DNA of 64,000 nucleotides from NCBI GenBank assembly GCA_947581615.1, contig CANPVD010000068.1, positions 2,240-66,239 on the forward strand, given 5' to 3'. The stretch comes from Candidatus Humimonas hydrogenitrophica (lineage in GTDB: Bacteria > Gemmatimonadota > Gemmatimonadetes > Palauibacterales > Palauibacteraceae). Shown one piece after another: positions 3,126 through 64,000 of this stretch (position 1 is its first letter; the number at the start of each line of letters is the position of its first letter). Position numbers and translations under genes: made by a program. The notes below the pieces were generated by a model. That model was not told the DNA's origin and searched no databases. It saw only the letters and a program-made list of their open reading frames with translations.

Positions 3126-4016
3126 ATGGACGCTGCACGGCGAGTTCGGCGCTACAAGGACGCAAGGGCCTTCCTTGCGAGGGCAGGCTCGTGGCTCCTG
3201 GAGCGCGAGGTCGAACACACGCTGCTTCTCGGCGTGACCCACCGCCTCGCCCGGTCGCGCCGGCCGGGGGCAGCGCCGACGTACCTGGCCGTCATCGAGG
3301 GTGGCGGGGGGCTGGAGGGATGCGCGCTGCGAACGCCGCCGTGGCCCCTCCTCGTGACCGAGGCTCCGGCCGAGGCTCTGTCCGCTCTCGTGGAGGATGT
3401 GGGCCGGGCCTACCCGGAGCTGCCTGCCGTGATGGGCCCGAAGCGCACGTCGGCGGCGTTCGCGCGCCGCTGGGCCGAAGCGCACGAACTGCGGGCGACG
3501 GTGGGCGTTGAGGAGCGTCTCCTCCGTCTCGATCGATGGCTGCCGCCGGCCCACCCGGCGCCGGGGCGCGTGCGGGAGGCGGCGGCGGCCGACCGCGACG
3601 GACTGGTCGCGTGGCTGGAAGAGTTCGCCCGCGAGGCCGACATCATGCTCCCGGACGCCGCCGCCACCGCAGACCGTCTGTTGGAGGAGGGCGCCGTCGT
3701 CCTCTGGGAGCATGCCGGCCGTCCGCGGTCCATGGCCGCCATCGGGGGCGAGTCTCCGCACACCGCCCGCATCGGCTACGTATACACACCCCCCGCCGAG
3801 CGGGGGAGGGGCTACGCCACGGCCTGCGTGGCGGGGCTCAGCGAGCGGCTCCTGAGGCGGGGCGTCGAGGCCGTGGTACTGTTCACCGACCTCGCCAACC
3901 CCACGTCGAACGCCCTGTACGCCCGCCTGGGCTATCGTCCCGTGGAGGACTCGACCCTGTGGAGATTCGGGCCGTCCCGCGCGAGAGGCGACGCTCGCAT
4001 CTCTCATTCAACATGA
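3126..4016 (+). CDS. GNAT family N-acetyltransferase
   Basis: ORF 2997..4016 trimmed to ATG at 3126 (MDAARRVRRYKDARAFL). The C-terminal block IGYVYTPPAERGRGYATACVAGLSERLL..VLFTDLANPTSNALYARLGYRPV is a typical GNAT acetyl-CoA binding fold motif. Confidence 0.6.
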   Translation: MDAARRVRRYKDARAFLARAGSWLLEREVEHTLLLGVTHRLARSRRPGAAPTYLAVIEGGGGLEGCALRTPPWPLLVTEAPAEALSALVEDVGRAYPELPAVMGPKRTSAAFARRWAEAHELRATVGVEERLLRLDRWLPPAHPAPGRVREAAAADRDGLVAWLEEFAREADIMLPDAAATADRLLEEGAVVLWEHAGRPRSMAAIGGESPHTARIGYVYTPPAERGRGYATACVAGLSERLLRRGVEAVVLFTDLANPTSNALYARLGYRPVEDSTLWRFGPSRARGDARISHST

Positions 4017-4023
4017 GGTGAAC

Positions 4024-4203
4024 ATGGCCAAGATGATACGCTGCAGAGATCTTGGACTCGATTGTGACTACGAGGCACGCGCCGACGACCCGGAGGCGCT
4101 GCTCGAGCTGGTGCGTCACCACGCACGGCGGGTCCACAGCCTGGAGGAGATGAGCGAAGCCATGGTCGAGAAGATCCGAGCGGCCATGCGCAACGTGGGC
4201 TGA
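4024..4203 (+). CDS. DUF1059 family small predicted metal-binding protein
   Basis: MAKMIRCRDLGLDCDYEARADDPEALLELVRHHARRVH matches the conserved DUF1059 pattern (M-K-x-I-x-C-x-D-x-G-x-D-C-D-F/Y-E). GAGGTG lies 3 nt upstream of ATG at 4024. Confidence 0.6.
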   Translation: MAKMIRCRDLGLDCDYEARADDPEALLELVRHHARRVHSLEEMSEAMVEKIRAAMRNVG

Positions 4204-4228
4204 TGCGGCGCAGGCCGCGCCCCGTCGC

Positions 4229-6998: not shown

Positions 6999-8069
6999 AT
7001 GCCGCGCTCACGGTCGTACGCCGCCCTGCTCGCCCTGGGCCTCGTCGCCTGCGGCGGGGGAGGCTCCACCGTCGGGCCCACTCCGGCGTCCGAGCCCCGC
7101 ACCTACGAGATGGGCTGGTCCGCGGTCCCGCCGCGGCCGAGCGAGGCGTCCTTCTTCGCCGCCACCAAGGCCGCGGCCGAGGTCTCCGACGTGGCCATCC
7201 TCCAGCAGCCCGTGCCCTGGGCCCAGCTGCTGGCCGGGGCGCCGATGGACTCTCTGGTCGAGGACCGGGGGGGCGTGGCGGACTACCTGCGGGCGCTGGG
7301 CGAGAAGATCGTCTTCCTGGTGGACCCGCTCGATGGCCTGAACCGGACCAGGGAGACGCCGGAACTGCTCGCCGTCGGCCGCAGCATCCTGGAGGCGGAC
7401 ATCCGCGCCACCCACGAGGCGTGGGTCCGGGCCATCGCCACCCGGATCCATCCCGAGTGGATGGGCCTGGCCTCGGAGATCAACACGCTGGCCGCGCACG
7501 GGGACTCGACCCTCTACCGCACGCTGGTCGGCATGATCGACAGCCTCGCGCCCGAGATCCGCTCCCTGAGCCCGGACACGAAGGTGTTCGTGTCCTTCCA
7601 GGTGGAGGACGCGTCGGGTTACTTCGGCGGGCAGGGCATCGACCAGTTCGCACTCATCGACGACTTCGACATCGACGCCCTGGGACTGTCCTCGTACCCG
7701 GTGTTCGTGTTCCCCACGCCGGCCGACGTCCCCGACGACTACCTGCAGCGCTTCCGGGACGCCACGAGCCTGCCCCTCATCATGGTCGAGGGGGGGTGGA
7801 GCTCGCAGAGCACCGACGCCTTCCAGTCCACCCCGCAGGAGCAGGTCGACTTCTTCCGTCGCTACGAGACGCTGCTCGACGGCGTCGACGCGCGCCTGTG
7901 GGTGATGCTCGTGTTCGCCGACCTCGACATCCCCTCGCTGGGCCTGCCGGCGGACCGCGCGGCCGGACTGGCCCCGTTCGCCCACATGGGAATCGTGGAC
8001 TCCGACCTCATCCCGAAGCCGTCGTACGAGGTGTGGAAGGAGATCCACGACCGACCGCTGGGGGGGTGA
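6999..8069 (+). CDS. Hypothetical lipoprotein (possible TIM-barrel glycoside-hydrolase-like fold)
   Basis: Signal peptide with lipobox LGLVAC-GGG. No confidently recognisable family. Weak resemblance to beta/alpha-barrel hydrolases (FQVEDASGYFGG, MVEGGWSS). Confidence 0.4.
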   Translation: MPRSRSYAALLALGLVACGGGGSTVGPTPASEPRTYEMGWSAVPPRPSEASFFAATKAAAEVSDVAILQQPVPWAQLLAGAPMDSLVEDRGGVADYLRALGEKIVFLVDPLDGLNRTRETPELLAVGRSILEADIRATHEAWVRAIATRIHPEWMGLASEINTLAAHGDSTLYRTLVGMIDSLAPEIRSLSPDTKVFVSFQVEDASGYFGGQGIDQFALIDDFDIDALGLSSYPVFVFPTPADVPDDYLQRFRDATSLPLIMVEGGWSSQSTDAFQSTPQEQVDFFRRYETLLDGVDARLWVMLVFADLDIPSLGLPADRAAGLAPFAHMGIVDSDLIPKPSYEVWKEIHDRPLGG

Positions 8070-8107
8070 TGGGCCGGATCGTGATCCGGCCCCGGCCCGG
8101 GATGCGC

Positions 8108-8145
8108 GAGAGGCCGGCCGCACCCACCGGTGCGGCCGGCCTCTC
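8108..8145. terminator. Perfect 17-bp GC-rich hairpin between convergent genes (candidate bidirectional terminator)
   Basis: GAGAGGCCGGCCGCACC-cacc-GGTGCGGCCGGCCTCTC lies between the lipoprotein (+) stop at 8069 and the stress protein (-) stop at 8206. Confidence 0.5.
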
Positions 8146-8205
8146 GCGTCGAAGCCCGGTCGGCCGGAACCCGCTCACGCGGCCGGTCTCCCGGCTCGCC
8201 GGTCG

Positions 8206-8706
8206 TCAGGCCAGTTCGGCCACCTCGACCATCCCTCCGTGCTGGGTCAGGGTCCCGAGCACCTCGTCCTCCTCGACGGTTCCCGCCGTGTCCACCGTGA
8301 CGAGCACGCCGCCCTCGGAGACGGCCTCGGCATAGGCCCGGGCCTCCTCGGGGCCGTACTCGGCCTTTTCCTCCAGCAGGCCGGCCAGCGCTCCCGTCGT
8401 GCCGCCCACGGCCGCTCCGGCGGCCGCGCCGCCCGCCACCGACCCGATCCAGCTCGTGAGCACGCCAGCCGTGATGAAGGGGCCCACGCCGGGAATGAAG
8501 GCTGCTGCGATCCCCATGATGGCGCCGGCGCCGGCGCCGACCTCGGCACCCCGGGCCGCTGCCTTCGCGTCTCTGTGCTCGCGATCCTCGCCCGAGTGAC
8601 GGGTGAGAAGGCCTATGCGGTCCTCGTCGATGCCCTCGCTTCGCAGGTCGTCCACCGCCGCCTCGGCCTCGTCCATGTCGTCGAATATCGCCGTTACTCG
8701 CTGCAT
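8206..8706 (-). CDS. General stress protein (YflT/DUF1269-like) with central Gly-zipper membrane segment
   Basis: ORF 8206..8850 trimmed to ATG at 8706 (MQRVTAIFDDMDEAEAAVDDLRSEGIDEDRIGLL). Gly/Ala-rich hydrophobic core, then a second acidic domain. GGGAG upstream. Confidence 0.45.
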   Translation of the reverse strand: MQRVTAIFDDMDEAEAAVDDLRSEGIDEDRIGLLTRHSGEDREHRDAKAAARGAEVGAGAGAIMGIAAAFIPGVGPFITAGVLTSWIGSVAGGAAAGAAVGGTTGALAGLLEEKAEYGPEEARAYAEAVSEGGVLVTVDTAGTVEEDEVLGTLTQHGGMVEVAELA

Positions 8707-8808
8707 TCTCGGCTTCTCCCTCTCGAGTCGCTGTACTGCTCGCACTCGACATCGAGGAGCAACGCATGTGCCATCATTGATGAGTCGGACCGAATCCTCG
8801 CGCTCGCG

Positions 8809-8837
8809 TTGACCCTGCCGCGGCGCGGATCTAGCTT
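8809..8837 (+). promoter_or_regulatory. Candidate promoter TTGACC-N17-TAGCTT ending 6 nt before the asnS ATG (would make asnS leaderless)
   Basis: Read directly from the sequence. The -35 is near-consensus and the -10 is weak. No Shine-Dalgarno lies between the -10 and ATG 8844. Confidence 0.3.
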
Positions 8838-8843
8838 CGCGCC

Positions 8844-10163
8844 ATGTCAACCACGAGATCGACCATCGCGGAGCTCTCCGGGCATGCCGGAGAGGAAGTC
8901 GAGCTCCTCGCCTGGGTGCGGAACTTCCGCTCCAGCGGGAAGATCGCCTTCCTCATCCTGCGCGACGGGACGTCGCTTCCGGACGGTACGCCCGAGGTCC
9001 AGGCCGTGGTCTCCCGGGGCGACGTCGACGAGGAGAGCTGGGAGGCCGCGAACGCGGCCCACTACGAGGCCAGCGTGCGTGTGCGTGGGCAGGTGCGCGC
9101 GGACGCCCGCGCGCCGGGAGGCTACGAGCTCTCGGTGCGGGAGCTCCGGGTGCTGGGCCCGTCGGCGGACTATCCGATCCAGCCCAAGGAGCACGGGCCG
9201 GAGTTCCTGCACGACCACCGGCACCTGTGGCTCCGCCATCCGCGCCAGGTCGCCATCCTCCGGATCCGGGACGAGGTCGAGAAGGCCATCCGGGACTTCT
9301 TCTACGATCGGCACTTCACGCTGATCGACACGCCCATCCTCACCGGCTCGATCGGGGAGGAGGCCGGCGAGCTGTTCGAGACCGAGTACTTCGACCTCGG
9401 CACCGCCTACCTGGCCCAGACCGGACAGCTGTACGTGGAGGCCGCCGCGGCCGCGCTCGGCAACGTGTACTGCTTCGGTCCCACGTTCCGGGCGGAGAAG
9501 TCCAAGACCCGGCGGCACCTGACCGAGTTCTGGATGGTCGAGCCCGAGATGGCCTGGACGGACAGCGAGGGCAACATGGCCGTCCAGGAGGCGTTCGTCG
9601 CCTTCATCGTGGGCCGGGTCCTGGAGCGCGGCCGCGCCGAGCTCGATGTCCTGGAGCGGGACGTATCGAAGCTCGAGGCCGTGACGCCGCCCTTCGACCG
9701 CATGAGCTACACGGAGACCGTCGAGTACCTGCGGGGGAAGGGAAGCGCGATCACCTGGGGCGAGGACCTGGGCGGCGAGGACCAGACCCTCCTCACCGAG
9801 GACCGGCCCAAGCCCGTGTTCGTGTACGATTTCCCCAAGGAGGCCAAGGCCTTCTACATGAAGGAGAACCCCGAGGACCCGCGCACGGTGAAGTGCGACG
9901 ACCTGTACGCTCCGGAAGGCTTCGGGGAGGTCATCGGGGGCAGCCAGCGCGAGGACGACTTCGACCGCCTCCTGGCCAGGATCCGCGAGGAGGGCCTGCC
10001 CGAGGAGGCGTACGGCTGGTACCTGGACCTCCGCCGCTACGGCACCTTCCCGCACTCGGGCTTCGGCCTGGGCCTCGAGCGCACGGTGGGCTGGATGTGC
10101 GGCGTGCCCCACATCCGCGAGGTCATCCCCTTCCCGAGGACGATCAACCGCCTGACGCCGTAG
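8844..10163 (+). CDS. asnS: Asparagine--tRNA ligase
   Basis: 439 aa class II aaRS with N-terminal OB fold. FRAEKSKTRRHLTEFWMVEPEMAW is the AsnRS-specific motif 2 region. GGSQRED motif 3. Length fits AsnRS, not AspRS. Confidence 0.85.
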   Translation: MSTTRSTIAELSGHAGEEVELLAWVRNFRSSGKIAFLILRDGTSLPDGTPEVQAVVSRGDVDEESWEAANAAHYEASVRVRGQVRADARAPGGYELSVRELRVLGPSADYPIQPKEHGPEFLHDHRHLWLRHPRQVAILRIRDEVEKAIRDFFYDRHFTLIDTPILTGSIGEEAGELFETEYFDLGTAYLAQTGQLYVEAAAAALGNVYCFGPTFRAEKSKTRRHLTEFWMVEPEMAWTDSEGNMAVQEAFVAFIVGRVLERGRAELDVLERDVSKLEAVTPPFDRMSYTETVEYLRGKGSAITWGEDLGGEDQTLLTEDRPKPVFVYDFPKEAKAFYMKENPEDPRTVKCDDLYAPEGFGEVIGGSQREDDFDRLLARIREEGLPEEAYGWYLDLRRYGTFPHSGFGLGLERTVGWMCGVPHIREVIPFPRTINRLTP

Positions 10164-10271: not shown

Positions 10272-11630
10272 CTACCGCCCGTCCATCCCCGCGCCCACGG
10301 GTGATCCCACCTGCTCGTCCGCGCCGGTTCGCTCGTCGATCGGCACGTACGGCCGCTCGTCCGCCCCGGTGTAGACCTGGCGGGGCCGGGCGATCTTCTG
10401 GTCCGGATCCTCCAGCATCTCCTGCCACTGCGCCAGCCAGCCCGAGACGCGCGGGATCGCGAACAGGACCGGGAACATGTCCACGGGGAAACCCATGGCC
10501 TGGTAAATGATTCCCGAGTAGAAGTCCACGTTCGGGTACAGCCTGCGGCTCACGAAGTACTCGTCTTCGAGGGCGACCCGCTCCAGCTCCAGGGCCAGGT
10601 CCAGCAGCGGCGAGCTGCCCGTCACCTCGAACACATCGCGCGCCATGGACTTCAGAATCCGGGCGCGGGGGTCGTAGTTCTTGTACACCCGGTGGCCGAA
10701 GCCCATGAGGCGGAAGTCGCCGGACTTGGCGCGGTCGACGAACTCCGGCACCCGGTCCTTCGTCCCGATCTCCCGCAGCATTCGGAGGACCTGCTCGTTG
10801 GCCCCCCCGTGAAGGGGTCCGTACAGCGCCGCCGCCGCCGCGGCCACCGACACGTAGGGATCCGCGTGGGACGAGCCCACCGATCGCATCGCGGTCGCGG
10901 AGCAGTTCTGCTCGTGGTCGGCATGCAGGATGAAGAGGACCTCGAGCGCCTTCTGGAGCACCGGGTTGGGCGGCTGCTTGGGCTCCCCGATGCTGAACAT
11001 CATGTTCAGGAAGTTGCCCGCGTAGCTGAGATCGTTGTCCGGGTACACGAACGGCAGCCCCTTGGAGTGCCGGTACGCGAACGCGGCCAGCGTCGGCATC
11101 TTGGCGATGAGCCGCACGATCTGGGTCCGCCGGTTTTCCGCGTCGGAGATGTCACGGGCCTCCGGGTAAAAGGTCGACAGCGCCGCCACCGTGGAGACGA
11201 GCATGCCCATCGGGTGCGCGTCGTAGTGGAAGCCCTCCGTGAACTTCTTGATGGACTCGTGCACGTACGTGTGGAAGGTGATCTCGTGGGTCCACGCCTC
11301 GAGCTCGTCGCGCGTGGGCAGGCGCCCGTGCACGACCAGGTAGGCCACCTCCAGGTAGCTGCCGTGCTCCGCCAGCTCCTCGATCGGGTAGCCCCGATAG
11401 CGGAGGATGCCCTTGTCGCCGTCGATGTGCGTGATCGAGCTGTGGCACGAAGCCGTGTTCTTGAAACCGGGGTCGTAGCCCAGCAGACCGAAGTCGTCCT
11501 CGGACGCCTTGATGTTTCGGAGGTCGGCTGTCGGAATGGAGGCTCCGTACTCCGGATACGTACCGTAGGAGATCGGGACCTCGTACTGCTTCCCGGTCCG
11601 ATTGTCCGTGATGGTCAGGGTATCTGGCAT
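10272..11630 (-). CDS. gltA: Citrate synthase (type II)
   Basis: 452 aa. HADHEQNCS, GPLHGGANE and GFGHRVYKNYDPRA signature motifs. Confidence 0.9.
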   Translation of the reverse strand: MPDTLTITDNRTGKQYEVPISYGTYPEYGASIPTADLRNIKASEDDFGLLGYDPGFKNTASCHSSITHIDGDKGILRYRGYPIEELAEHGSYLEVAYLVVHGRLPTRDELEAWTHEITFHTYVHESIKKFTEGFHYDAHPMGMLVSTVAALSTFYPEARDISDAENRRTQIVRLIAKMPTLAAFAYRHSKGLPFVYPDNDLSYAGNFLNMMFSIGEPKQPPNPVLQKALEVLFILHADHEQNCSATAMRSVGSSHADPYVSVAAAAAALYGPLHGGANEQVLRMLREIGTKDRVPEFVDRAKSGDFRLMGFGHRVYKNYDPRARILKSMARDVFEVTGSSPLLDLALELERVALEDEYFVSRRLYPNVDFYSGIIYQAMGFPVDMFPVLFAIPRVSGWLAQWQEMLEDPDQKIARPRQVYTGADERPYVPIDERTGADEQVGSPVGAGMDGR

Positions 11631-11772
11631 TGCCGTACCTCCTTCTGGATCTCGTGCCGCACCGGCTCCTCACAGCGACCGGCCGGGATCGTGTGCCCCC
11701 GCCGCTCGTCCGCGCGCTGCACCCAATAATACCGCAATCTGCGGGCCGCTCACCATGCGATCTGTAGGGAAA

Positions 11773-12672
11773 TCACGGACCGTGGCGTGGGGGAATGCTC
11801 CCCGGCAGGCGTCGGTCGCCGGGTCGGGCGTCCCCGGCCGCCTTCACCTCGTCCCACAGGGCGTCCAGGTCGGCCAGGGACGCCGATGCGGGGTCGAGCC
11901 CCCGTTCCGACGCCAGCGCGAGCAGGGCGCGGAAGCGGGCCTGGAACTTCCGGTTGGCGGCGCCGAGCGCGTTGGAGGGGTGCACGCCCGCTCGGCGGGC
12001 CAGGTTGACGGCGGCGAACAGGAGGTCTCCCAGCTCTTCCTCGAGGCGGGGATGGGCGGGACCGGGGAGGCGTCCGCCGTCCGCGCCCTCCGCCGGCCCC
12101 GCACCGGCCTCGGCCAGCTCCGCCTCGAGCTCGTCGACCTCCTCGCGCACCTTGGCGAGGGGGCCGGCCACGTCGTCCCAGTCGAAGCCGAGGGCGGCGG
12201 CCCGCTGCTGCAGCCGAAACCCACGCGCCAGCGGCTCCAGGGTCGCGGGAACGCCGGCGAAGGGGTCGGCGGCGGTCCCTTCCGACCGCTGGCGCTCGGC
12301 GGCCTTGACCGCCTCCCAGTCCGGCGGCTCCTCCTCGTCACCGTAAACGTGCGGATGGCGGCGCCGCATCTTGTCCTCGAGTCCCGCCACCACGTTCGTC
12401 GCGTCGAACGCCCCCCGCTCCTCGGCCAGGACGATCTGGAAGGCCACGTTGAGAAGGAGGTCCCCGAGCTCCTCGGCCAGGGCCGCGTCGTCCCCGGCCG
12501 CCACCGCCTCGGCCGTCTCGTGCGCCTCCTCGAGCAGGTAGGGCCGCAGGCTCTCGGGCGTCTGCCTCGCGTCCCACGGGCAGCGCTCCCGCAGGAGCCG
12601 GACGAGGGCCAGGGCCGTGCCCAGCGAGCCGTCACCCGGGAGTCCGCGGGTCGCGTGCAGGGTCTCGCTCAC
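11773..12672 (-). CDS. mazG: Nucleoside triphosphate pyrophosphohydrolase MazG
   Basis: Two tandem MazG domains (EEAHETAEAV..GDLLLNVAF and EELGDLLFAAVNLAR). The start overlaps the stop of the upstream S9 peptidase by 4 nt. Confidence 0.8.
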   Translation of the reverse strand: MSETLHATRGLPGDGSLGTALALVRLLRERCPWDARQTPESLRPYLLEEAHETAEAVAAGDDAALAEELGDLLLNVAFQIVLAEERGAFDATNVVAGLEDKMRRRHPHVYGDEEEPPDWEAVKAAERQRSEGTAADPFAGVPATLEPLARGFRLQQRAAALGFDWDDVAGPLAKVREEVDELEAELAEAGAGPAEGADGGRLPGPAHPRLEEELGDLLFAAVNLARRAGVHPSNALGAANRKFQARFRALLALASERGLDPASASLADLDALWDEVKAAGDARPGDRRLPGSIPPRHGP

Positions 12673-23526: not shown

Positions 23527-24557
23527 TGGAGAGGTCCGTCATCACCCTGAACCGCTTCATCCTCGAGGAGGAGCGGCGGTATCCGGAGGCCACCGGGGCG
23601 TTCTCGAACGTGCTCCAGGACCTGACGCTGGCGGCCAAGCTCATCAACCGGGCCGTGAACCAGGCCGGCCTGGTCGACATCCTGGGCGAGACCGACCGGG
23701 AGAACGTGCACGGCGAGCAGGTGCAGAAGCTGGACGAGTACGCCCACGAGGTCATCGTGGCCGCCATGGACCACGGCGGCCACCTCTGCGTGATGGGCTC
23801 CGAGGAGGCCGAGGAGATCGTCCCGATCCCGGACCGCTTCCCGGTGGGCGAGTACGTGCTCCTGTTCGACCCGCTCGACGGCAGTTCCAACATTGAGGCC
23901 AACATCTCGATCGGGACGATCTTCTCGGTGTATCGGCGGGTCACCGATCCGGCCGTGACGAGGAACGGGACACTGGAGGACTGCCTCCAGCCGGGGACCG
24001 ACCTGGTGGCCTCGGGCTACTTCCTGTACGGCTCCTCCACCATCCTCGTGTACACGACGGGCCGGGGCGTGCACGGCTTTACCCTGGATCCCTCGATCGG
24101 AGAGTTCCTGCTCTCGCATCCGAACATCACCTTCCCCGACCCGGGACAGAAGGTGTACGCCATCAACGAGGGCTACTTCGGGCGCTGGAGCGAGGCGCAG
24201 AGGAACCTGGTTCGGCGGCTGCGGGGTGATGCGGGGGGGGACGACGGGGACGGCTTCAAGCTCCGCTACGTCGGCTCGCTGGTGGCCGACTTCCACCGCA
24301 CCCTCCTGTACGGCGGCCTGTTCATGTATCCGTCCGACAACCGACATCCCTCCGGCAAGCTGCGGCTCCTGTACGAGGCCGGCCCGCTGGCGTTCGTGTG
24401 CGAGCAGGCGGGAGGGAAGGCCACGAACGGCGAGAAGCGCATCCTGGAGATCCGGCCCGAGGAGCTCCACCAGCGCACGCCCCTGTTCATCGGGACGGCG
24501 GAATGGGTGGAGATGGCCGGCGAGCACCTGGCCCGGGAGGCCGCGGCCGGGGCCTGA
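23526..24557 (+). CDS. fbp: Fructose-1,6-bisphosphatase class 1
   Basis: ORF 23256..24557 trimmed to ATG 23526 (MERSVITLNRFILEE), overlapping the comEC TGA by 1 nt. FBPase-1 motifs. Confidence 0.85.
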   Translation: MERSVITLNRFILEEERRYPEATGAFSNVLQDLTLAAKLINRAVNQAGLVDILGETDRENVHGEQVQKLDEYAHEVIVAAMDHGGHLCVMGSEEAEEIVPIPDRFPVGEYVLLFDPLDGSSNIEANISIGTIFSVYRRVTDPAVTRNGTLEDCLQPGTDLVASGYFLYGSSTILVYTTGRGVHGFTLDPSIGEFLLSHPNITFPDPGQKVYAINEGYFGRWSEAQRNLVRRLRGDAGGDDGDGFKLRYVGSLVADFHRTLLYGGLFMYPSDNRHPSGKLRLLYEAGPLAFVCEQAGGKATNGEKRILEIRPEELHQRTPLFIGTAEWVEMAGEHLAREAAAGA

Positions 24558-57096: not shown

Positions 57097-58266
57097 ATGA
57101 GCACGAGGACGGAGGACGGGACGGAGGACGGGACGGAGGCGCCGGAGACGCGGCGCGAGAGGGCCGCGAAGGTCCCGACGCCGGGCGGCTCGGGCGGCGA
57201 GGAGCTGCCCGAGCGCTTCGTCGTCGTCGCACGCCGCTTCCGGGCCGGGGACCCGCGCGGGCTCGCCCGGGCCATCACCCTGGTCGAGAACGAGGTGCCG
57301 GGCTTCGAGCGGCTCCTGGACGAGCTCCACGAGGGAGTGGGCCGCGCCCGCCGCATCGGCATCACGGGCCCTCCGGGGGCGGGCAAGTCGACCCTGACCG
57401 CCGCTCTGACGCGCCTGTTCCGCGCCCGCGGACTCACGGTTGGGATCGTGGCCGTGGACCCGACCAGCCCGTTCACGGGCGGGGCCCTGCTCGGGGACCG
57501 GGTGCGGATGACCGACCTGGCCACCGAGGAGGGGATCTTCATCCGCTCGATGGCCAGCCGCGGCTCCCTGGGCGGCATGGCCACCGCCAGCCGCGAGGCG
57601 GCCGACCTCATGGACGCGTTCGGATTCGACCGGATCCTCCTGGAGACGGTGGGTGTCGGCCAGTCGGAGCTCGAGGTGGCCCAGGCGTGCGACACGGCCG
57701 TGGTCGTGCTGGTGCCCGAGTCGGGCGACGGCATCCAGGCCATGAAGGCCGGCCTCATGGAGGTGGCCGACCTGTTCGTGATCAACAAGGCGGACCGCCC
57801 CGGGGCCGACCGGCTGGCGGCCGAGATCGCCATCATGCAGCGCATCCGGGCCGGCCGGACGCCGGGCGGCGGGACGGGCCACCACGGGGCGGGGTCGGCC
57901 GCGGCCGGCGACGGTGGTGACGCCCGGGCCGGCGAGGTGGAGACCGGCCGCCGCGAGGCGCCCGTGCTGCAGACGGCCGCCTCGAAGGGGGAGGGGATCG
58001 AGGCGCTGGCCGGCGCGCTGGATGAGCACTTCGGGTTCCTGGAAGACACGGGAGCCCTGGAGCTGCGCCGCCGCGAGCACCTGGTCGAGCACGCGCGCTC
58101 CGTGCTGCGCCGCCGGTTCGAGCGTCGGGCGGACCGGCTGTGGAGGGAGCGCGGGTCGGAGATGGAGGAGGCGCTCGGGGCGGGCCGGCTGAGCCCGTAC
58201 GCGGCGGCCGATGCCGTCGAGCGGGCGGCCGCCGATGCCGTGGAACCGGCGACCGACGAGGACTGA
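57097..58266 (+). CDS. meaB: Methylmalonyl-CoA mutase-associated G-protein chaperone MeaB/ArgK
   Basis: GPPGAGKST P-loop. VINKAD. DxxG. SIMIBI-class signature. Confidence 0.85.
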   Translation: MSTRTEDGTEDGTEAPETRRERAAKVPTPGGSGGEELPERFVVVARRFRAGDPRGLARAITLVENEVPGFERLLDELHEGVGRARRIGITGPPGAGKSTLTAALTRLFRARGLTVGIVAVDPTSPFTGGALLGDRVRMTDLATEEGIFIRSMASRGSLGGMATASREAADLMDAFGFDRILLETVGVGQSELEVAQACDTAVVVLVPESGDGIQAMKAGLMEVADLFVINKADRPGADRLAAEIAIMQRIRAGRTPGGGTGHHGAGSAAAGDGGDARAGEVETGRREAPVLQTAASKGEGIEALAGALDEHFGFLEDTGALELRRREHLVEHARSVLRRRFERRADRLWRERGSEMEEALGAGRLSPYAAADAVERAAADAVEPATDED

Positions 58267-58380
58267 CCGCCCGCCCGCGCCGGGAACGCGGCGCTGCGGG
58301 GACCGTATAGCTAGTGGGCCGCCGCCGGGTCTCTTCCCGGTACCGGGCGGCCGGGTGCACACCAGGCTGGGAGCCACCCC

Positions 58381-60105
58381 ATGGGAAGCGTGATGGACGA
58401 TACCCGGTCCCGGGAGGCGCTCGAGCGCGAGCTCGAGGCCCGGGAGAGCGAGGTCGAGGCGCTGCGCGCGGAGCTCGCGAGCTGGCGCGAGGCCTACGAG
58501 GCCGTCCCCAAGCGGGGCGACGCGGCTGGCTTCACGACCGTGTCGGGCCGGAAGGTGGCGCCCCTGTATACGCCGCTGGACCGGGACGGGTTCGACTACG
58601 CGCGGGACCTGGGCTTCCCGGGCGAGTTCCCGTTCACGCGGGGCCCCTACCACAGCATGTACCGCACCCGGCTGTGGACCATGCGGCAGTTCTCCGGCTT
58701 CGCCACCGCCGAGGAGACGAACGAGCGCTACAAGTTCCTGCTCGAGCGCGGCCAGACCGGGCTCTCCGTCGCCTTCGACTTCCCGACCCTCATGGGCTAC
58801 GACTCCGACGACCGCCTGTCGGAGGGCGAGGTGGGGAAGTGCGGCGTGGCGATCACGAGCCTGGCCGACATGGAGACGCTGTTCGACGGCATCCCGCTGA
58901 GCGACGTGTCGGTGTCGATGACCATCAACGGGCCGGCCATCATGCTGTACTGCTTCCTGCTGGTGGCGGCCGAGAAGCAGGGGGTGCCGTTCGAGGAGGT
59001 CCAGGGCACGATCCAGAACGACATCCTCAAGGAGTACATGGCGCAGCACGCCTGGATCTACCCGCCCGAGCCGGCCCTCAAGCTCATCGTCGACACGTTC
59101 GAGTGGTCGGCCGAGCACGCGCCCAAGTTCAACACGATCTCGATCTCCGGCTACCACATCCGGGAGGCCGGCGCCACGGCCGCCCAGGAGCTGGCCTACA
59201 CCCTGAAGAACGGCTTCACCTACGTGGAGCGGGGGATGGAGCGCGGGCTGGACGTGGACGCCTTCGCCCCGCGGCTGTCCTTCTTCTGGGACGTCCACAA
59301 CGACTTCTTCGAGGAGATCGCCAAGTTCCGGGCGGCGCGCCGCATCTGGGCCCGTCACCTGCGCGAGGTCTACGGGGCGCGTGAGCCCGAGAGCTGGCGG
59401 CTCAGGACGCACGCGCAGACGGCCGGCGTGACGCTCACCGCCCAGCAGCCCGTGAACAACGTGGCCCGGGTGGCCTACCAGGCCATGGCCGCGGTCCTGG
59501 GCGGCACGCAGTCGCTGCACACCAACGCCCTCGACGAGACGCTCGCCCTCCCCACCGAGCAGGCGGTGCGCGTGGCGCTCCGCACCCAGCAGATTCTCGC
59601 CTACGAGACCGGGGTCGCCCACTCGATCGACCCCCTGGCGGGATCCTACTACGTGGAACGGCTCACGGACGAGCTCGAGGAGGAGGCCGAGGAGATCTTC
59701 CGGGAGATCGACTCCCTGGGCGGCGTCGTCTCCGGGATCGAGAACGGTTACTTCCAGTCCCAGATCGCCGCCTCCTCGCGCCGCTTCCAGGCGGAGGCCG
59801 AGTCCGGCGAGCGGGTGGTCGTGGGCGTGAACGAGTTCGTGGAGGACGAGGAGACCCCGATCGAGATCCTCAAGATCGGCGAGGAGGCGGCCGAGAAGCA
59901 GGAGGCGCGCCTGGCCGCCCTGCGAGAGCGCCGCGACGGGGCGGAGGTCGAGCGCCTGCTGGACCGCCTGGGCGAGGCGGCCCGGGCCGACGAGAACCTC
60001 ATGCCCCCCATGCTGGACGCCGTCCGCGCCTACGCCACCCTGGGCGAGATCCGGGCCACCCTGGAGGAGGTGTACGGCAGGTTCCAGGAGCCGGTGAGCT
60101 TCTGA
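58381..60105 (+). CDS. Acyl-CoA mutase family catalytic (large, TIM-barrel) subunit lacking a fused B12-binding domain (methylmalonyl-/isobutyryl-CoA mutase-like)
   Basis: [52 protein letters not shown] is the mutase substrate barrel. The 574 aa protein ends before any Rossmann DxHxxG B12 domain. Confidence 0.8.
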
Positions 60106-60148
60106 CCAGTCGGCTGCCCGAGCCCGAAGGCCTCAGCCCATTCCGTCG

Positions 60149-60787
60149 CTACCCCGAGGTTCGCCGTGCGCAGAAGTAGCCGTTGGGTGTCGGTGGCCTC
60201 CAGAAGCCGACAGCCCATGTGCCCTTGAGGCCCATGGAATCGGCTGCCCATACGACCCAATCGGGAGCTCGCCGCGGCCGAACGCTTCCGCTCCGTTCGA
60301 TCTCTCCTTGTTCCAAGAAGACGGTGCTGTCCCTTCCCCGCGAACCTACCACCTGCTTGGGCAAGTCCACAGATTGAACAATGCGGGCCGTTGCTGGCTG
60401 TAGCGAATCTGCCTCACCTTTGTCCAGGGCGAGATCAGTGTGTCCTTCGACGATCCAGGAGAGACCCTTGAGTATTTCAGGGCCTTCGCGTGACCATCGC
60501 TCGAGGGTCAAATGGCCAGACACATCGGAGCCTTTCTGCTCACCAGCCGCGATGTACATAGTCAGTTCATATGTTCCGGGCAGCCACCCAATCTCGACGA
60601 CCGAGCCCGCGAGCGTATCCGGTGGACCACAACCTCGGATATCCGCCGCTGCCTCCTGTCGTGACTTCTCTTGCCTTGATGGGCTACAGGCGATCACCGA
60701 CGCTGCCATCACGACGCTGACGATGCCGACTAGGTTCCGCCTTACGCACCGCTTGCTGCCGCCCTCGCATTCGTCCTTCAGCCTCAT
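60149..60787 (-). CDS. Hypothetical lipoprotein; candidate immunity protein for the adjacent RHS toxin C-terminal domain
   Basis: Lies 15 nt downstream of the RHS stop on the same strand. Signal plus lipobox ..VVMAASVIAC-S. No recognisable family. Lies in a GC-depressed (about 57%) segment. Confidence 0.5.
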   Translation of the reverse strand: MRLKDECEGGSKRCVRRNLVGIVSVVMAASVIACSPSRQEKSRQEAAADIRGCGPPDTLAGSVVEIGWLPGTYELTMYIAAGEQKGSDVSGHLTLERWSREGPEILKGLSWIVEGHTDLALDKGEADSLQPATARIVQSVDLPKQVVGSRGRDSTVFLEQGEIERSGSVRPRRAPDWVVWAADSMGLKGTWAVGFWRPPTPNGYFCARRTSG

Positions 60788-60802
60788 GATCTTCTGAGCG
60801 CC

Positions 60803-63800
60803 TCATTGTGGCCAGGAACAAGTCGTCCAACTGGAATCGATAGGGGTATAAACGTAGAGCAAACCGGAGATGATTATGTGAGTCGTGTGCCGAGTCTTTG
60901 TCGTGCATGTATCTCGAAGGCTTGGAGCGCCGCCGCCCCAATGCGTATGAAAGTCTCCAGAGGCGCCTGCGTAGAAGGGCACGTGCACAGTGTCTCCTCC
61001 CGGTCTGCCGGAAACGGTTACGTGCAATGGATCGCTCCACGGAGCCCCGTACCAGCCGCCAAATTCCTGCCTGTTTAGCCACGACCGCCTGTAGAGATTA
61101 CCTGCCTGCTCGAGGAAGCTCGCGTTGAATTGACAATTGAACGTGTCGGCCCGAGCAGCCGCGGCTGCTCCACCCCCCGGAGGTCCAAACGCGGCAAAGC
61201 CGGAATTGGGGCCCGCACCGTCACCGTCGCCCCCGAGGCCGGGCGCTGAGGAGGCGCCATAGCCACCGGCGGCACCCGCACCGCCGCCACCGCCCTGGAC
61301 GAGGACCTTGAGCTCCGTCGCGTCGTCGCACCACGGATCGGGAGTCCAGGTGAAGTAACAGTCGAGGCCAGAGGGATCCGTCCCGTTCGTGGGACTGTTC
61401 CCCACGTAGGCGTAAGGGTTGATCCCGGCCGAGAGCCCCAGCGGATCCTCGCTGAGGAAGCGTCCGAGCTCGGGGTCGTAGGAGCGGGCGCCCATGGCGT
61501 AGAGGCCCTCGTGCCAGTCGAGCATCGAGCCGGCCCAGCGCAGCCAGTTGGACACGGTGGTCGAGCCGTGCTGGGCATTCCCCCAGGGATCGTAGCGGTA
61601 GTCGTTGGCCACGCCCGAGTCGCCGAACAGCCCGAGGACGGAGCCGAGGTCGTCGGTGGCCAGGTAGTAGGTCTCCTCGTCGGCACGCAGGCTGTGGGGC
61701 AGGGCGCCGCCGGGGAAGTAGGCGTAGGTGGCCTTGAGCGCGGTGGCCCCGGCGTAGACGGCGAACAGGGAGCTTCCGTCCCACAGGAAGTGGAGGACGT
61801 AGCCGGTCTTGCCGCGCTCGACGCGGCGGCCGAAGCCGTCGTACTCGTAGCGCCAGACGGTGTCGCCGTCGGCGAGGCTGTCGAGCCGGCCCGTGGGGCT
61901 CCAGTAGAAGCTCTCGTTCACTCCGCTTCCCGACTTGGAGGTGAGCCGGCCGGCGGCGTCCCAGGTGAGGCTGTAGCCGGCGAAGGAGCTCGGCCGGTCG
62001 GCCGTGTCGATCACGGCGCCGTGGTCGGTGCGATTCCCCACCGCGTCGTAGGCGTAGAGCGCCGAGTCGGCGACCGTGTAGCCCGAGTTGAAGCTGCAGT
62101 CGTTGGGATCGATCGAGCCCGGCGTGCAGGTCACCCCCGCGTTGGCCACGCGGTCCACGTACCCGGTGAGCCGGCTCTCACTGTCGTACGTATAGGCCCG
62201 GCTCGTGTCCTCGCTCGCCCCCCGGTAGACCGCGGTCCGCCGGCCGAGCGAGTCCTCGCTGAAGGCCTGCCCGAACTTCGCCTCGAGGACGGAGCTGCTC
62301 CACGAGAGGGACCCCGTCCGGTGGGAGGAGGCCACGCCGCGCCACAGCGTGTCGCCGGTCGGGTAGATCACTTTCGTGGTCTGGCGGTCCGCGTCGTAGG
62401 CGAAGGTCGTCGCCTGCCCCCCGGCGTCGATGAGGGAGTCCAGCCGGCCCTGGTCGTCGTACCGGTAGCCCACCGAATCGGTCCACGGGGTCGTCGCGGC
62501 GATCTCGGCCCGGCGGCCCTCCCCGTCGTACCGGCTGTGGAGGACGTAGCGGGTAGAGCCCCGGCGGGTGATCTGGTCCACCACGCGGCCCGCGGCGTCG
62601 TAGGTCACCGTGTCCGTGCTCGCGGCGTTGGAGGCGGCGACGAACAGGCCGTCGGGGTCCGTCGTGAACGTGGTGGTGTCGCCCCCCTCGGCGCGCCACG
62701 CCAGTTGGCCCAGGGCGTCGTAGCCGAAGCCCACGGTCTGACCCACCCGGTTCGTCCAGCTCGTGATCCGTCCGTTCGCATCGTAGGCGTACGCGTCGGC
62801 GTGGCCGGCGGGATCGGTGCGCCCGGTGATCCAGCCCAGGGCGTTCCGGTCGAACGAATAGGTCTGTCCGAGGGCGTCGGTCACTCCCGTGACGTAGAGC
62901 GAGTCGTACGACAGGCGCGTGGTGTCCCCCAGGGGGCCGACCGTGAGGGTCATCCGGTTCAACGTGTCGTAGGCCGTGGTGGCGGTGTGACCGTCGGCGT
63001 CCGTGACCTGGACGGTCCGGCCGTAATCGTCGTAGGCGTAGCGCGTGGTCCTCGCCTCGCTCGACAGCGTCGAGTCCACGCCCGTCTTCACCGAGTCGGT
63101 GTTCATGGAGCCGGCCGGAGCGTAGAACACCCTCAGCTCGTGGTGCTCCGGGTCGATCCGGGTGAGGAGGCGCCCCAGGGAGTCGTAGGTGAAGCGCGTG
63201 GCCGCGGCCGCCGAGCTTCCGACGCGCACGCTGTCGACCCTGCCGTCCGTGTAGTCGAGCCACCGCGGCGTCACGTCGCCGTAGAGGCGCGTGGGCAGGT
63301 GGGGAGCGAGGGAGTCCTCGTAGGCCAGGTGGACGGTCCGGTCGCTGGCGCGATCCGTCTCCTGCGTGAGGTCCGGCCCGTCCCACGTGTAGTCGACGGT
63401 GTCGCCGTTCGGGAGGATCGCCTGCGTGAGCCGGGAGTCGCCGTTCCGAACGAAGTGCGTGGCGGATCCCAGCGCCGGATAGATCCAGGTCGGCGCCAGG
63501 AACCTGTCGACCTGGAAGGAGGTCGTGTCTCCCTCCGGGTCCACGATGGCCGGTCGCGCGGTCCCGGACGCTACCGAGGTCGCGGGACTCGAGGACGTGC
63601 CCTCTCCGGAGTCGCTCACCATGTGGGCCACCTGCCAGGCCAGGGAGGCGTACCGGACGACCGGGCGCATGGACGCGCTGTCGGCGACCACCTCGGGCAG
63701 GGTGTCGGCGGCCAGCCGGCCGGCGAAATCGTAGGCGAAGCCCCAGTCGTTCCCGCCGCGATCGGTGCGCGTGAGCATCCGGTGGTCGGCGTCGTAGGTC

Positions 63801-64000
63801 GCCCGCAGGGCATCGACGCCCTCGGGGTACTCGATGTGATTGAGGTCCCCCGCCACGCTGATCGTGACCTTGACGTGCCGGCCCTCCGGATCCTCGATCC
63901 ACGCCAGCTTCCCGTCGTACCCGTACCCGATCGTGAACGACTGGCCCGTCGGGTCCGTGACCGTGTGCAGGCCGTGCGTGTTGTACGCGTACGTGGTGGC
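60803..64000 (-). CDS. RHS/YD-repeat polymorphic toxin (5' end outside window) with uncharacterised C-terminal toxin domain
   Basis: ORF 60803..63856 continues in frame to the window edge (hand translation of 63857-64000 gives ..YAYNTHGLHTVTDPTGQSFTIGYGYDGKLAWIEDPEGRHVKVTISVAGDLNH). More than 25 YD repeats (YDxxGR). Canonical core end DPLGLSAGINPYAYVGNSPTNGTDPSGL (DPxGL). An about 190-aa variable C-terminus follows. Confidence 0.85.
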   Translation of the reverse strand, partial: ATTYAYNTHGLHTVTDPTGQSFTIGYGYDGKLAWIEDPEGRHVKVTISVAGDLNHIEYPEGVDALRATYDADHRMLTRTDRGGNDWGFAYDFAGRLAADTLPEVVADSASMRPVVRYASLAWQVAHMVSDSGEGTSSSPATSVASGTARPAIVDPEGDTTSFQVDRFLAPTWIYPALGSATHFVRNGDSRLTQAILPNGDTVDYTWDGPDLTQETDRASDRTVHLAYEDSLAPHLPTRLYGDVTPRWLDYTDGRVDSVRVGSSAAAATRFTYDSLGRLLTRIDPEHHELRVFYAPAGSMNTDSVKTGVDSTLSSEARTTRYAYDDYGRTVQVTDADGHTATTAYDTLNRMTLTVGPLGDTTRLSYDSLYVTGVTDALGQTYSFDRNALGWITGRTDPAGHADAYAYDANGRITSWTNRVGQTVGFGYDALGQLAWRAEGGDTTTFTTDPDGLFVAASNAASTDTVTYDAAGRVVDQITRRGSTRYVLHSRYDGEGRRAEIAATTPWTDSVGYRYDDQGRLDSLIDAGGQATTFAYDADRQTTKVIYPTGDTLWRGVASSHRTGSLSWSSSVLEAKFGQAFSEDSLGRRTAVYRGASEDTSRAYTYDSESRLTGYVDRVANAGVTCTPGSIDPNDCSFNSGYTVADSALYAYDAVGNRTDHGAVIDTADRPSSFAGYSLTWDAAGRLTSKSGSGVNESFYWSPTGRLDSLADGDTVWRYEYDGFGRRVERGKTGYVLHFLWDGSSLFAVYAGATALKATYAYFPGGALPHSLRADEETYYLATDDLGSVLGLFGDSGVANDYRYDPWGNAQHGSTTVSNWLRWAGSMLDWHEGLYAMGARSYDPELGRFLSEDPLGLSAGINPYAYVGNSPTNGTDPSGLDCYFTWTPDPWCDDATELKVLVQGGGGGAGAAGGYGASSAPGLGGDGDGAGPNSGFAAFGPPGGGAAAAARADTFNCQFNASFLEQAGNLYRRSWLNRQEFGGWYGAPWSDPLHVTVSGRPGGDTVHVPFYAGASGDFHTHWGGGAPSLRDTCTTKTRHTTHIIISGLLYVYTPIDSSWTTCSWPQ

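Follow-up and report, generated by a model that had tools for sequence, protein, structure and literature searches.

Introduction

The rhs (rearrangement hotspot) loci of enterobacteria combine a core rich in guanine and cytosine (GC) with an exchangeable C-terminal tip that has a GC signature of its own; tips undergo C-terminal displacement, and the dissociated ones persist as strings of core fragment plus tip behind one intact gene, with the core fragments within a locus belonging to the same clade and with strains sharing tips in different positions (Jackson et al. 2009, PMC2935791). For Salmonella Typhimurium LT2, activation of an orphan Rhs toxin by recombination fusion has been shown experimentally (Koskiniemi et al. 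2014, PMC3967940). Here, we analyze an rhs locus at the end of a 64,000-nt stretch of DNA (hereafter, the window; positions 2,240 to 66,239 of contig CANPVD010000068.1) of Candidatus Humimonas hydrogenitrophica, a member of the Gemmatimonadota with a genome of ~73% GC. The locus bears the marks of Rhs/YD polymorphic toxins, namely, YD/RHS repeats, a core ending with DPxGL, swapped tips, and orphan modules in relatives. We conclude that its low-GC segment very likely consists of a toxin tip and the cognate immunity gene, which came from a horizontal pool and were homologously recombined onto a resident GC-rich RHS shell.

The enterobacterial precedent is matched in the GC-rich core with an exchangeable tip of distinct composition, in the strings of core fragment and tip behind one intact gene, in the sharing of tips in different positions, and in the common clade of the core fragments at one locus. 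The locus differs in its host phylum and in its composition, the GC content at third codon positions (GC3) being 0.95 versus 0.62 rather than GC-rich versus AT-rich, as well as in having a second, nested junction after a conserved linker and, in the orphan array of a relative, a mutase relic that marks an imported block. As in the orphan capture of Salmonella LT2, the predicted switch from main-like to orphan-like sequence is found at the core end of the window, whereas the event, in its probable direction, is deduced here from two natural genomes, and the intervening modules are absent, implying deletion.

Two further systems are relevant. Tox-JAB-1, reported only in Bacteroidetes, is carried on RHS repeats, is characterized by NxxxE, HxH, S, and D motifs in a JAB domain of deaminase-like fold, and is exported by a signal peptide ('T2SS' class); its partner Imm65 contains a YxC motif and, alone among the immunity proteins collected in that study, appears to be a lipoprotein (Zhang et al. 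2012, PMC3482391). In the CdiA-CT/CdiI systems (Poole et al. 2011, PMC3150448), orphan toxin/immunity pairs keep a stub of upstream homology. The locus studied here shares with CdiA-CT/CdiI a polymorphic C-terminal toxin after a short conserved motif and an immunity gene directly downstream; the scaffold is a two-partner-secretion filament in that system versus an RHS cocoon here, and the motif is VENN versus DPxGL.

A low-GC cassette at the end of the rhs gene

The rhs gene lies on the minus strand, its frame running from the window end (64000) down to a stop at 60803-60805. It contains 11 stretches matching the Pfam model RHS_repeat (PF05593; E 7e-42), 10 matching TIGR01643, and the Rhs-associated core domain (Rhs_assc_core, TIGR03696) at amino acids (aa) 755-831 of the listed open reading frame (ORF), i.e., at ~61364-61594 (86.8 bits versus a cut-off of 32.5). 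The motif DPSGL (61364-61378) closes the core domain, and a 185-aa tip then follows. The features of the locus, in window coordinates, are as follows:

61364..64000, minus strand: RHS/YD-repeat shell, partial, with the frame open to 64000 and with the core domain and DPSGL at its end
61370..61490, minus strand: predicted crossover zone, the final ~120 nt of the core, with the switch from main-like to orphan-like sequence
61142..61363, minus strand: pre-toxin linker, DCYFTWTPDPWCDDATELKVLVQ and then a Gly/Ala-rich tract ending in ...AAARADT
60803..61141, minus strand: toxin domain (112 aa and the stop codon) from a putatively JAB/MPN-fold family that lacks annotation
60149..60787, minus strand: candidate immunity gene for a 212-aa lipoprotein, beginning 15 nt past the rhs stop
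60106..60148, no strand: spacer of 43 nt between convergent stops, from the ORF coordinates
58381..60105, plus strand: methylmalonyl-CoA-mutase-family gene (PF01642 on the identical product)

The ~1-kb GC-depressed stretch that an initial annotation had noticed by eye is real. Its GC content is 0.596 over 60110-61150, compared with 0.706 for the RHS body (61151-64000) and 0.729 for the whole window, and the lowest 300-, 500-, and 1,000-nt segments of all 64 kb sit in it (0.557, 0.566, and 0.590, with z of about -4.4, -4.7, and -4.8, respectively). The 300-nt sliding GC content is 0.73 at 59900-60199, 0.56-0.60 at ~60200-61100, and 0.68-0.71 from about 61000-61300 on; anywhere else in the window, it is never below 0.63. 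The only other stretches lying more than 2.5 standard deviations (SD) under the mean (3876-4176, 8559-8984, 10977-11799, and 23878-24182) have a GC content of 0.63-0.64 at 300 nt and are far shallower than the rhs tip.

Codon usage places a sharp step at the core/tip motif. Across 28 high-confidence frames of the window, GC3 is 0.916 +/- 0.032 (minimum, 0.854), with values of 0.948 for the RHS body, 0.981 for the mutase gene, 0.956 for the MeaB gene, and 0.960 for the MgtE gene. The cassette falls 8-9 SD under this mean, GC3 being 0.617 in the final 115 codons of the tip (the toxin; total GC, 0.562) and 0.656 in the lipoprotein gene (total GC, 0.608). GC at first and second codon positions (GC1 and GC2) is nearly unchanged across the cassette, except that it is raised in the linker (tip codons 1-70; GC1/GC2/GC3 of 0.757/0.729/0.70). 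Along the RHS frame, the single best GC3 change-point is codon 867 (~nt 61396; log-likelihood gain, 57.9), with near-equal optima at 61291-61420; it separates a GC3 of 0.95 upstream from 0.655 downstream and coincides with the DPSGL motif.

The maximum-likelihood change-points of total GC lie elsewhere, at 60295 and 61145. The left one reflects amino acid content, not codon usage: the immunity gene appears richer in GC over its final 150 nt when all positions are counted, and GC3 stays low (0.65) to 60149. At the other end, the true edge is masked because the high GC1 and GC2 of the linker (0.76 and 0.73) hide its depressed GC3. Thus, by codon usage, the cassette spans ~1.25 kb (60149 to ~61380), versus 1.04 kb by total GC. 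The limits originally given, from just after the mutase stop at 60105 through the last ~350 nt of the RHS gene, agree with the total-GC break at 61145 but do not mark the core/tip boundary, for which the GC3 break lies at ~61396; nor does GC recover inside the YD-repeat body, as had been thought, since the recovery at ~61150 lies in the C-terminal tip, within the linker.

In a self-BLAST of 60100-64000 against the window, neither the core nor the linker nor the tip had a second copy, and scans of 59900-61500 found no promoter- or terminator-like sites. A tRNA-linked island as the cause of the dip was ruled out, with tRNA and Rfam scans of the whole 64-kb window returning no match.

Relatives join the same shell to other tips

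The principal comparison is with L011, a 317-kb European Nucleotide Archive (ENA) contig of the same synteny, reached through P0001, the only close homologue of the tip (54% identity). A genome scan added an uncultured Gemmatimonadales metagenome-assembled genome (MAG), CAWANJ01 (L012/L013; CAWANJ010000002.1), in which the locus is 99.5-99.8% identical to that of L011 at the nucleotide level. The full-length (main) rhs gene of L011 is 97.9% identical to the window over 62634-61368, as is that of the MAG, and the match stops inside the DPSG[L/M] codons, beyond which the main gene bears an unrelated 194-aa tip and then, in the place of the immunity gene, a membrane-protein gene. The GC3 step at the core/tip motif and this alignment bear out the original proposal of tip and immunity gene exchange on a resident RHS shell.

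Both L011 and the MAG contain one full-length rhs gene and five downstream orphan modules. Each orphan in L011 consists of a core fragment and a tip, some with an immunity candidate, and insertion sequence (IS) remnants of IS21 and an IS3 copy are interspersed. A look for orphan modules downstream of 60149 had also been suggested; there is no space for any in the window, where the stops at 60149 and 60105 are just 43 nt apart, whereas in the relative the five lie at that very position. The last of them, orphan 6 (L011:13187-15143), is collinear with window 62171-60149, with 93-98% nucleotide identity through the linker, toxin, and immunity gene; it is start-less, retains an intact 212-aa immunity ORF, and adjoins the mutase gene, and the same holds for the MAG. 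An identical tail in relatives had been named as grounds for abandoning displacement, and the same toxin and immunity genes are indeed present. Nevertheless, the shared tail does not refute displacement, because the pair is the start-less last orphan there and the full-length gene bears a different tip, an arrangement that follows from the displacement model. In the orphan copy (L011:13200-14489), DPSDL replaces DPSGL, and 66 nt are deleted in frame from the core relative to window ~61631-61830, both being signs of decay in a silent copy.

The composition of the array follows the same division as that of the window. Core fragments in L011 have a GC content of 0.70-0.73, and every tip/immunity stretch has 0.54-0.63; GC3 is 0.94-0.97 in 5 of the 6 core fragments (0.86 in the diverged orphan 2), 0.61-0.72 in the five full-length tips, and 0.56-0.71 in the immunity genes. 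In three other assemblies, members of the same toxin/immunity family are attached to unrelated RHS ends and have a GC3 of 0.58-0.69, next to 0.70-0.83 in the upstream RHS and 0.87-0.90 in the neighbor genes. The low-GC composition travels with the cassette.

These data bear on the explanation that the dip arises from the amino acid composition of the two proteins or from AT-biased decay of weakly selected, poorly expressed DNA, which we regard as exceedingly improbable. Amino acid content does move the apparent edges, at the linker and over the final 150 nt of the immunity gene, and the ratio of nonsynonymous to synonymous substitution rates (dN/dS) of the immunity gene against the L011 copy is fairly high (0.61). 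However, the fall is concentrated at third positions (from 0.95 to 0.62-0.66), with GC1 and GC2 changing little; purifying selection acts on the toxin (dN/dS relative to the L011 copy, 0.25); in hosts that differ in GC, the family keeps a GC3 of about 0.6-0.7; and equally silent orphan cores beside the tips keep a GC3 of 0.94-0.95. Because these presumably silent, start-less cores have kept their high GC3, it is the origin of the cassette, not drift at the locus, that accounts for its low GC, and the GC3 results largely refute amino acid composition or local decay as the cause.

The array is also an active IS target. In L011, an IS3-family copy (11010-12446; CCAG target duplication) splits the immunity gene of orphan 5, which is intact in the MAG, where this copy is missing; conversely, the core fragment of orphan 5 carries an insert of ~2.3 kb in the MAG (at L011 ~9969) that L011 lacks. 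At least 4 other tips of the L011 array and several small membrane-protein genes, which are immunity candidates, have no Pfam match (tips and immunity candidates at 1269-2498, 3717-4214, 7481-8429, and 9001-9573; also P0002) and amount to a modest stock of RHS toxins that lack annotation.

Two nested exchange junctions

The locus has two nested exchange junctions, one at DPSGL and the other at 61142/61141, ~220 nt downstream. The linker between them is common, at about 92-95% nucleotide identity, to the window, L011 orphans 3, 5 (i.e., P0001), and 6, and P0002; after ...AAARADT, these sequences bear four different C-terminal domains. The total-GC break at 61145 matches this second junction, from linker to toxin. 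Metagenome contig L004 differs from the window at a single position across the toxin and immunity genes (~1 kb) and at 28 positions (8%) in the 345 nt upstream, comprising the core end and linker; 22 of its 37 differences fall in the linker. Furthermore, ten independent assemblies break in this region, at 61905, 61800, 61576, 61485, and 61387 and, for five Logan contigs, exactly at 61213, as expected if the core end and linker occur in several contexts in these populations. The linker thus acts as a second recombination substrate, and the conserved sequence 5' of each junction, i.e., the core end and the linker, would supply the homology for crossover.

History of the arrangement

To trace the core end of the window, we considered as informative the sites at which the L011 main gene and orphan 6 differ. 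Over 62171-61491, the window agrees with the main gene at 44 sites, with orphan 6 at 3, and with neither at 1 (96.9% overall identity to main versus 91.5% to orphan 6); over 61490-61369, it agrees with main at 3, with orphan 6 at 6, and with neither at 0, and further downstream it follows orphan 6. Because the informative sites switch from main-like to orphan-like, we favor recombination between a main gene and a distal orphan, with loss of the intervening modules. Such a crossover, placed at ~61370-61490, would join the full-length rhs gene to the terminal orphan of an array like that of L011; it would delete the intermediate modules and give this toxin the promoter and export signals of rhs, in the manner of the Salmonella orphan capture.

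The opposite history ranks as a close second: the window may represent an ancestral single-tip state, the L011 array having been built later by serial tip insertion, that is, by classical C-terminal displacement. This course of events is less probable, yet far from negligible. The displacement model has the most distal orphan as the oldest tip, and the window cassette is the most distal one in L011. The decay of orphan 6 (DPSDL and the 66-nt deletion) fits long silence, and the presence or absence of IS3 and IS21 copies between L011 and the MAG points to an array in flux. In addition, a decayed copy of the last ~95 mutase codons (L011:6455-6735; 79% nucleotide identity, two in-frame stops) lies directly upstream of the orphan 3 core fragment; the block upstream of this relic must have been imported from a genome in which rhs also adjoined the mutase gene, so that at least one block was brought into the L011 lineage, evidence of import that serves the favored reading as well. 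By contrast, an ancestral core end in the window should resemble orphan 6, and it matches the L011 main gene at 44 of 48 informative sites, a result that later homogenization of full-length cores between lineages could still produce.

Synonymous divergence (dS) between the window and L011 bears on the timing. It is 0.093 in the cassette, 0.059 in the RHS core, and 0.198 at the mutase 3' end. Since the cassette is comparable to its flanks, it has been at the locus since before the lineages split. The recent part is the join, not the arrival, and the genomes differ in which tip joins the shell. Next to the locus, the mutase gene is a mosaic relative to L011:15187-16911, with a dS of 0.024 over the first 1230 nt and of 0.198 over the last 490 nt, and MeaB (window 57097-58330) is only 72-83% identical to the related genome at the nucleotide level, a pattern suggestive of a recent recombination tract whose end lies within the mutase gene.

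Several results speak against capture of a horizontally acquired tip by crossover with a distal orphan. The cassette, with a dS like that of its flanks, shows no recent transfer into the lineage, contrary to the notion of a recent arrival; no donor with matching GC has been identified; and the window contains neither orphan modules nor a mobile-element or repeat scar. Moreover, the junction at 61389-61432 is closer to L011 orphan 3 than to orphan 6, and a single crossover between main and orphan 6 is too simple a history.

The toxin domain and its candidate immunity protein

An exhaustive profile search of 1.84 billion representative proteins recovered only four clusters related to the toxin (P0001, P0004, P0005, and P0006), all of which are C-termini of RHS proteins. 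Fifteen residues are invariant in the family (C8, F14, Q17, G33, G34, Y36, G64, G67, H70, H72, P78, D82, P105, S109, and C113), and E31 and S79 are each present in 5 of the 6 sequences. Judged from the alignment, they spell a putative JAMM motif, E...HxH...SxxD:

61064-61066 (E), 60947-60949 (H), 60941-60943 (H), 60920-60922 (S), and 60911-60913 (D), minus strand: putative metal/catalytic residues
61133-61135 and 60818-60820, minus strand: invariant Cys of the toxin

The AlphaFold2 model of the toxin built from a 5-sequence alignment has a pLDDT of 82.6 and a pTM of 0.77 (a 2-sequence alignment gave an unusable model, pLDDT 44.6). Foldseek comparison with the PDB returned nearly exclusively JAMM/MPN proteins, including a bacterial Ubl-deubiquitinase, Pyrococcus JAMM1, AF2198, Rpn11, AMSH, and BRCC36, with the entries 8tyx_B and 5ld9_A (prob 1.00, TM 0.55) among the top matches; a viral library yielded JAB, RadC, and deubiquitinase matches at E 5e-4 and above. 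Accordingly modeled, the toxin is probably a JAB/MPN-fold hydrolase, Zn-dependent, in which the invariant Cys pair may have a stabilizing role. Against this reading stand the weakness of the PDB fold matches (E 4e-3 to 0.1, TM about 0.5), the failure of any of the six family members to match a JAB sequence model of Pfam or NCBIfam at E<=10, and the replacement of the putative catalytic Glu (E31) by His in P0006.

The downstream lipoprotein is a candidate for the cognate immunity protein, given its position 15 nt past the rhs stop and strict co-occurrence with the toxin at six loci. It has a lipobox (...VMAASVIAC/SPS...) and a C-terminal GYFCARR. At each of the six toxin loci, the gene directly downstream encodes a homologous exported protein (174-212 aa) that terminates in G[YF]FCAxR; inspection of the sequences gave the lipobox (VIAC/AIAC) and the invariant G[YF]FCAxR, and the homologues accompanying the other toxin-family members are 24-30% identical. 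A word-indexed search of 5.8 billion proteins returned only the window protein itself. The array shared by L011 and the MAG contains a paralogous pair, with toxins 37-40% identical and immunity proteins 27% identical (BLASTP E 1e-09), which has co-diverged; its immunity gene is the one split by the IS3 copy in L011. The lipoprotein would neutralize the toxin outside the cytoplasm, and because the immunity protein is a lipoprotein and the toxin has an invariant Cys pair, toxin action would likewise take place outside the cytoplasm, in the envelope or periplasm.

One could argue instead that there is no toxin/immunity module, the downstream ORF encoding an unrelated lipoprotein and the RHS C-terminus being a nontoxic appendage. 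In keeping with this, no annotated family matches either protein: scans against Pfam and NCBIfam assigned no family to the tip or its toxin domain, to the immunity protein, to P0002, or to four further tips/immunity candidates from L011, and alignment profiles of the toxin and of the immunity protein gave only chance-level matches against PDB sequences. The notion is nonetheless very unlikely, considering that the pair is strictly linked in six independent loci, with the paralogous pair co-diverging, that the position right after DPxGL of the Rhs core is the canonical toxin slot, that the JAB-fold catalytic motif is conserved, and that RHS-borne JAB toxins with a lipoprotein immunity protein have been described (Zhang et al. 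2012, PMC3482391).

Compared by published description, that pair, Tox-JAB-1/Imm65, is the closest known analogue. The window toxin family shares with Tox-JAB-1 the HxH, S, and D motifs and the RHS association, whereas the N of NxxxE is not conserved and the host phylum is another. The immunity proteins are alike by motif only, both being lipoproteins, with a lipobox or signal peptide and G[YF]FCAxR here versus YxC in Imm65, and no Pfam model matches either window protein, even at E<=10. The system found here is either a remote relative of Tox-JAB-1/Imm65 or an analogous pairing.

Delivery and genomic setting

The sequence beyond 64000 was approached through a relative, L018, found by a protein-based scan; it is 98% identical over 400 aa, and its RHS frame runs ~1.4 kb beyond the window end. 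An exact 46-mer from the window end had no match in metagenome contigs, and a word-indexed search with the RHS body was swamped by repeats, its sole match being 28% identical. The N-terminus of the L018 RHS protein contains a signal-peptide-like segment (L018:4312-4460; ...RARPPVAVAVGLLALLIGVGALHAQG...), before which there is no in-frame ATG, GTG, or TTG. The ATG at 4391 misses the frame by one base, and a C10 homopolymer lies just upstream; either an indel in the assembly or an atypical start codon may account for the anomaly. No Pfam model matches the 520-aa N-terminal region.

YD/RHS toxins exported through Sec, such as Bacillus subtilis WapA, are independent of type VI secretion systems (T6SS). 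None of the marks of T6SS delivery (an N-terminal PAAR or clade domain, or neighboring genes for VgrG or an EagR chaperone) occurs at L018, where the genes upstream are metabolic, with products comprising a B12-binding protein, a carboxyltransferase, and AtuA. With its signal-peptide-like N-terminus and no PAAR or VgrG genes nearby, the system resembles WapA, the host here being presumably a diderm, unlike B. subtilis. Judging from these sequence features of the 98%-identical L018, in which the start codon could not be placed, export is probably Sec-dependent rather than T6SS-mediated. In such a scheme, the YD shell would encapsulate the tip, and the Rhs-associated core domain would cleave at DPSGL.

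The mutase gene is the right-hand anchor of the rhs locus and is kept in all relatives, being syntenic in L001-L003, L011, and L012. The immunity protein is identical on 16 metagenome contigs, all with the synteny mutase-MeaB-MgtE-DUF502-YbeY. When window 57097-60105 is combined with L018:1-4400, the relative of the sequence beyond 64000, the order in window orientation is MeaB and mutase catalytic subunit (plus strand), immunity gene and RHS (minus strand), and B12-binding-domain protein, carboxyltransferase, and AtuA (plus strand). The inverted rhs locus thus looks like an island that splits a metabolic operon, apparently separating the mutase gene from its B12-binding partner.

Implications for polymorphic toxins

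The GC signatures of Rhs core and tip and the exchange of tips are already known, and the understanding of Rhs systems is unchanged. The novel elements are the phylum, the nested junction at the linker, the relic of the mutase gene, and an unannotated family of JAB-fold toxins and lipoprotein immunity proteins. Elsewhere, to our knowledge, the JAB enzymes described are cytoplasmic isopeptidases or RadC-like proteins. We tentatively propose, as a possibility that is on balance doubtful, a new family of extracytoplasmic JAB/MPN-fold toxins with dedicated periplasmic lipoprotein immunity, which would have spread, by two-tier recombination at the core end and in the linker, through those RHS proteins of Gemmatimonadota and other soil bacteria that are exported by Sec and do not depend on T6SS. 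If the proposal is true, two-tier recombination lets toxin domains be swapped while leaving the autoproteolytic core undisturbed.

As to method, raw GC can misplace the edge of a cassette across a Gly/Ala-rich linker, and GC3 places it correctly. With this locus, the model of rhs displacement and orphan capture reaches beyond Enterobacteria to Gemmatimonadota. As a natural case of polymorphic-toxin evolution, the locus is very clean, with one genome keeping a six-module archive and the other joining only its last entry to the shell, with a crossover zone mappable to ~120 nt, and with a fossil of the neighbor gene marking an imported block. The putative JAB-fold toxin with its G[YF]FCAxR lipoprotein is a rare pair and a candidate for a new envelope-directed activity.

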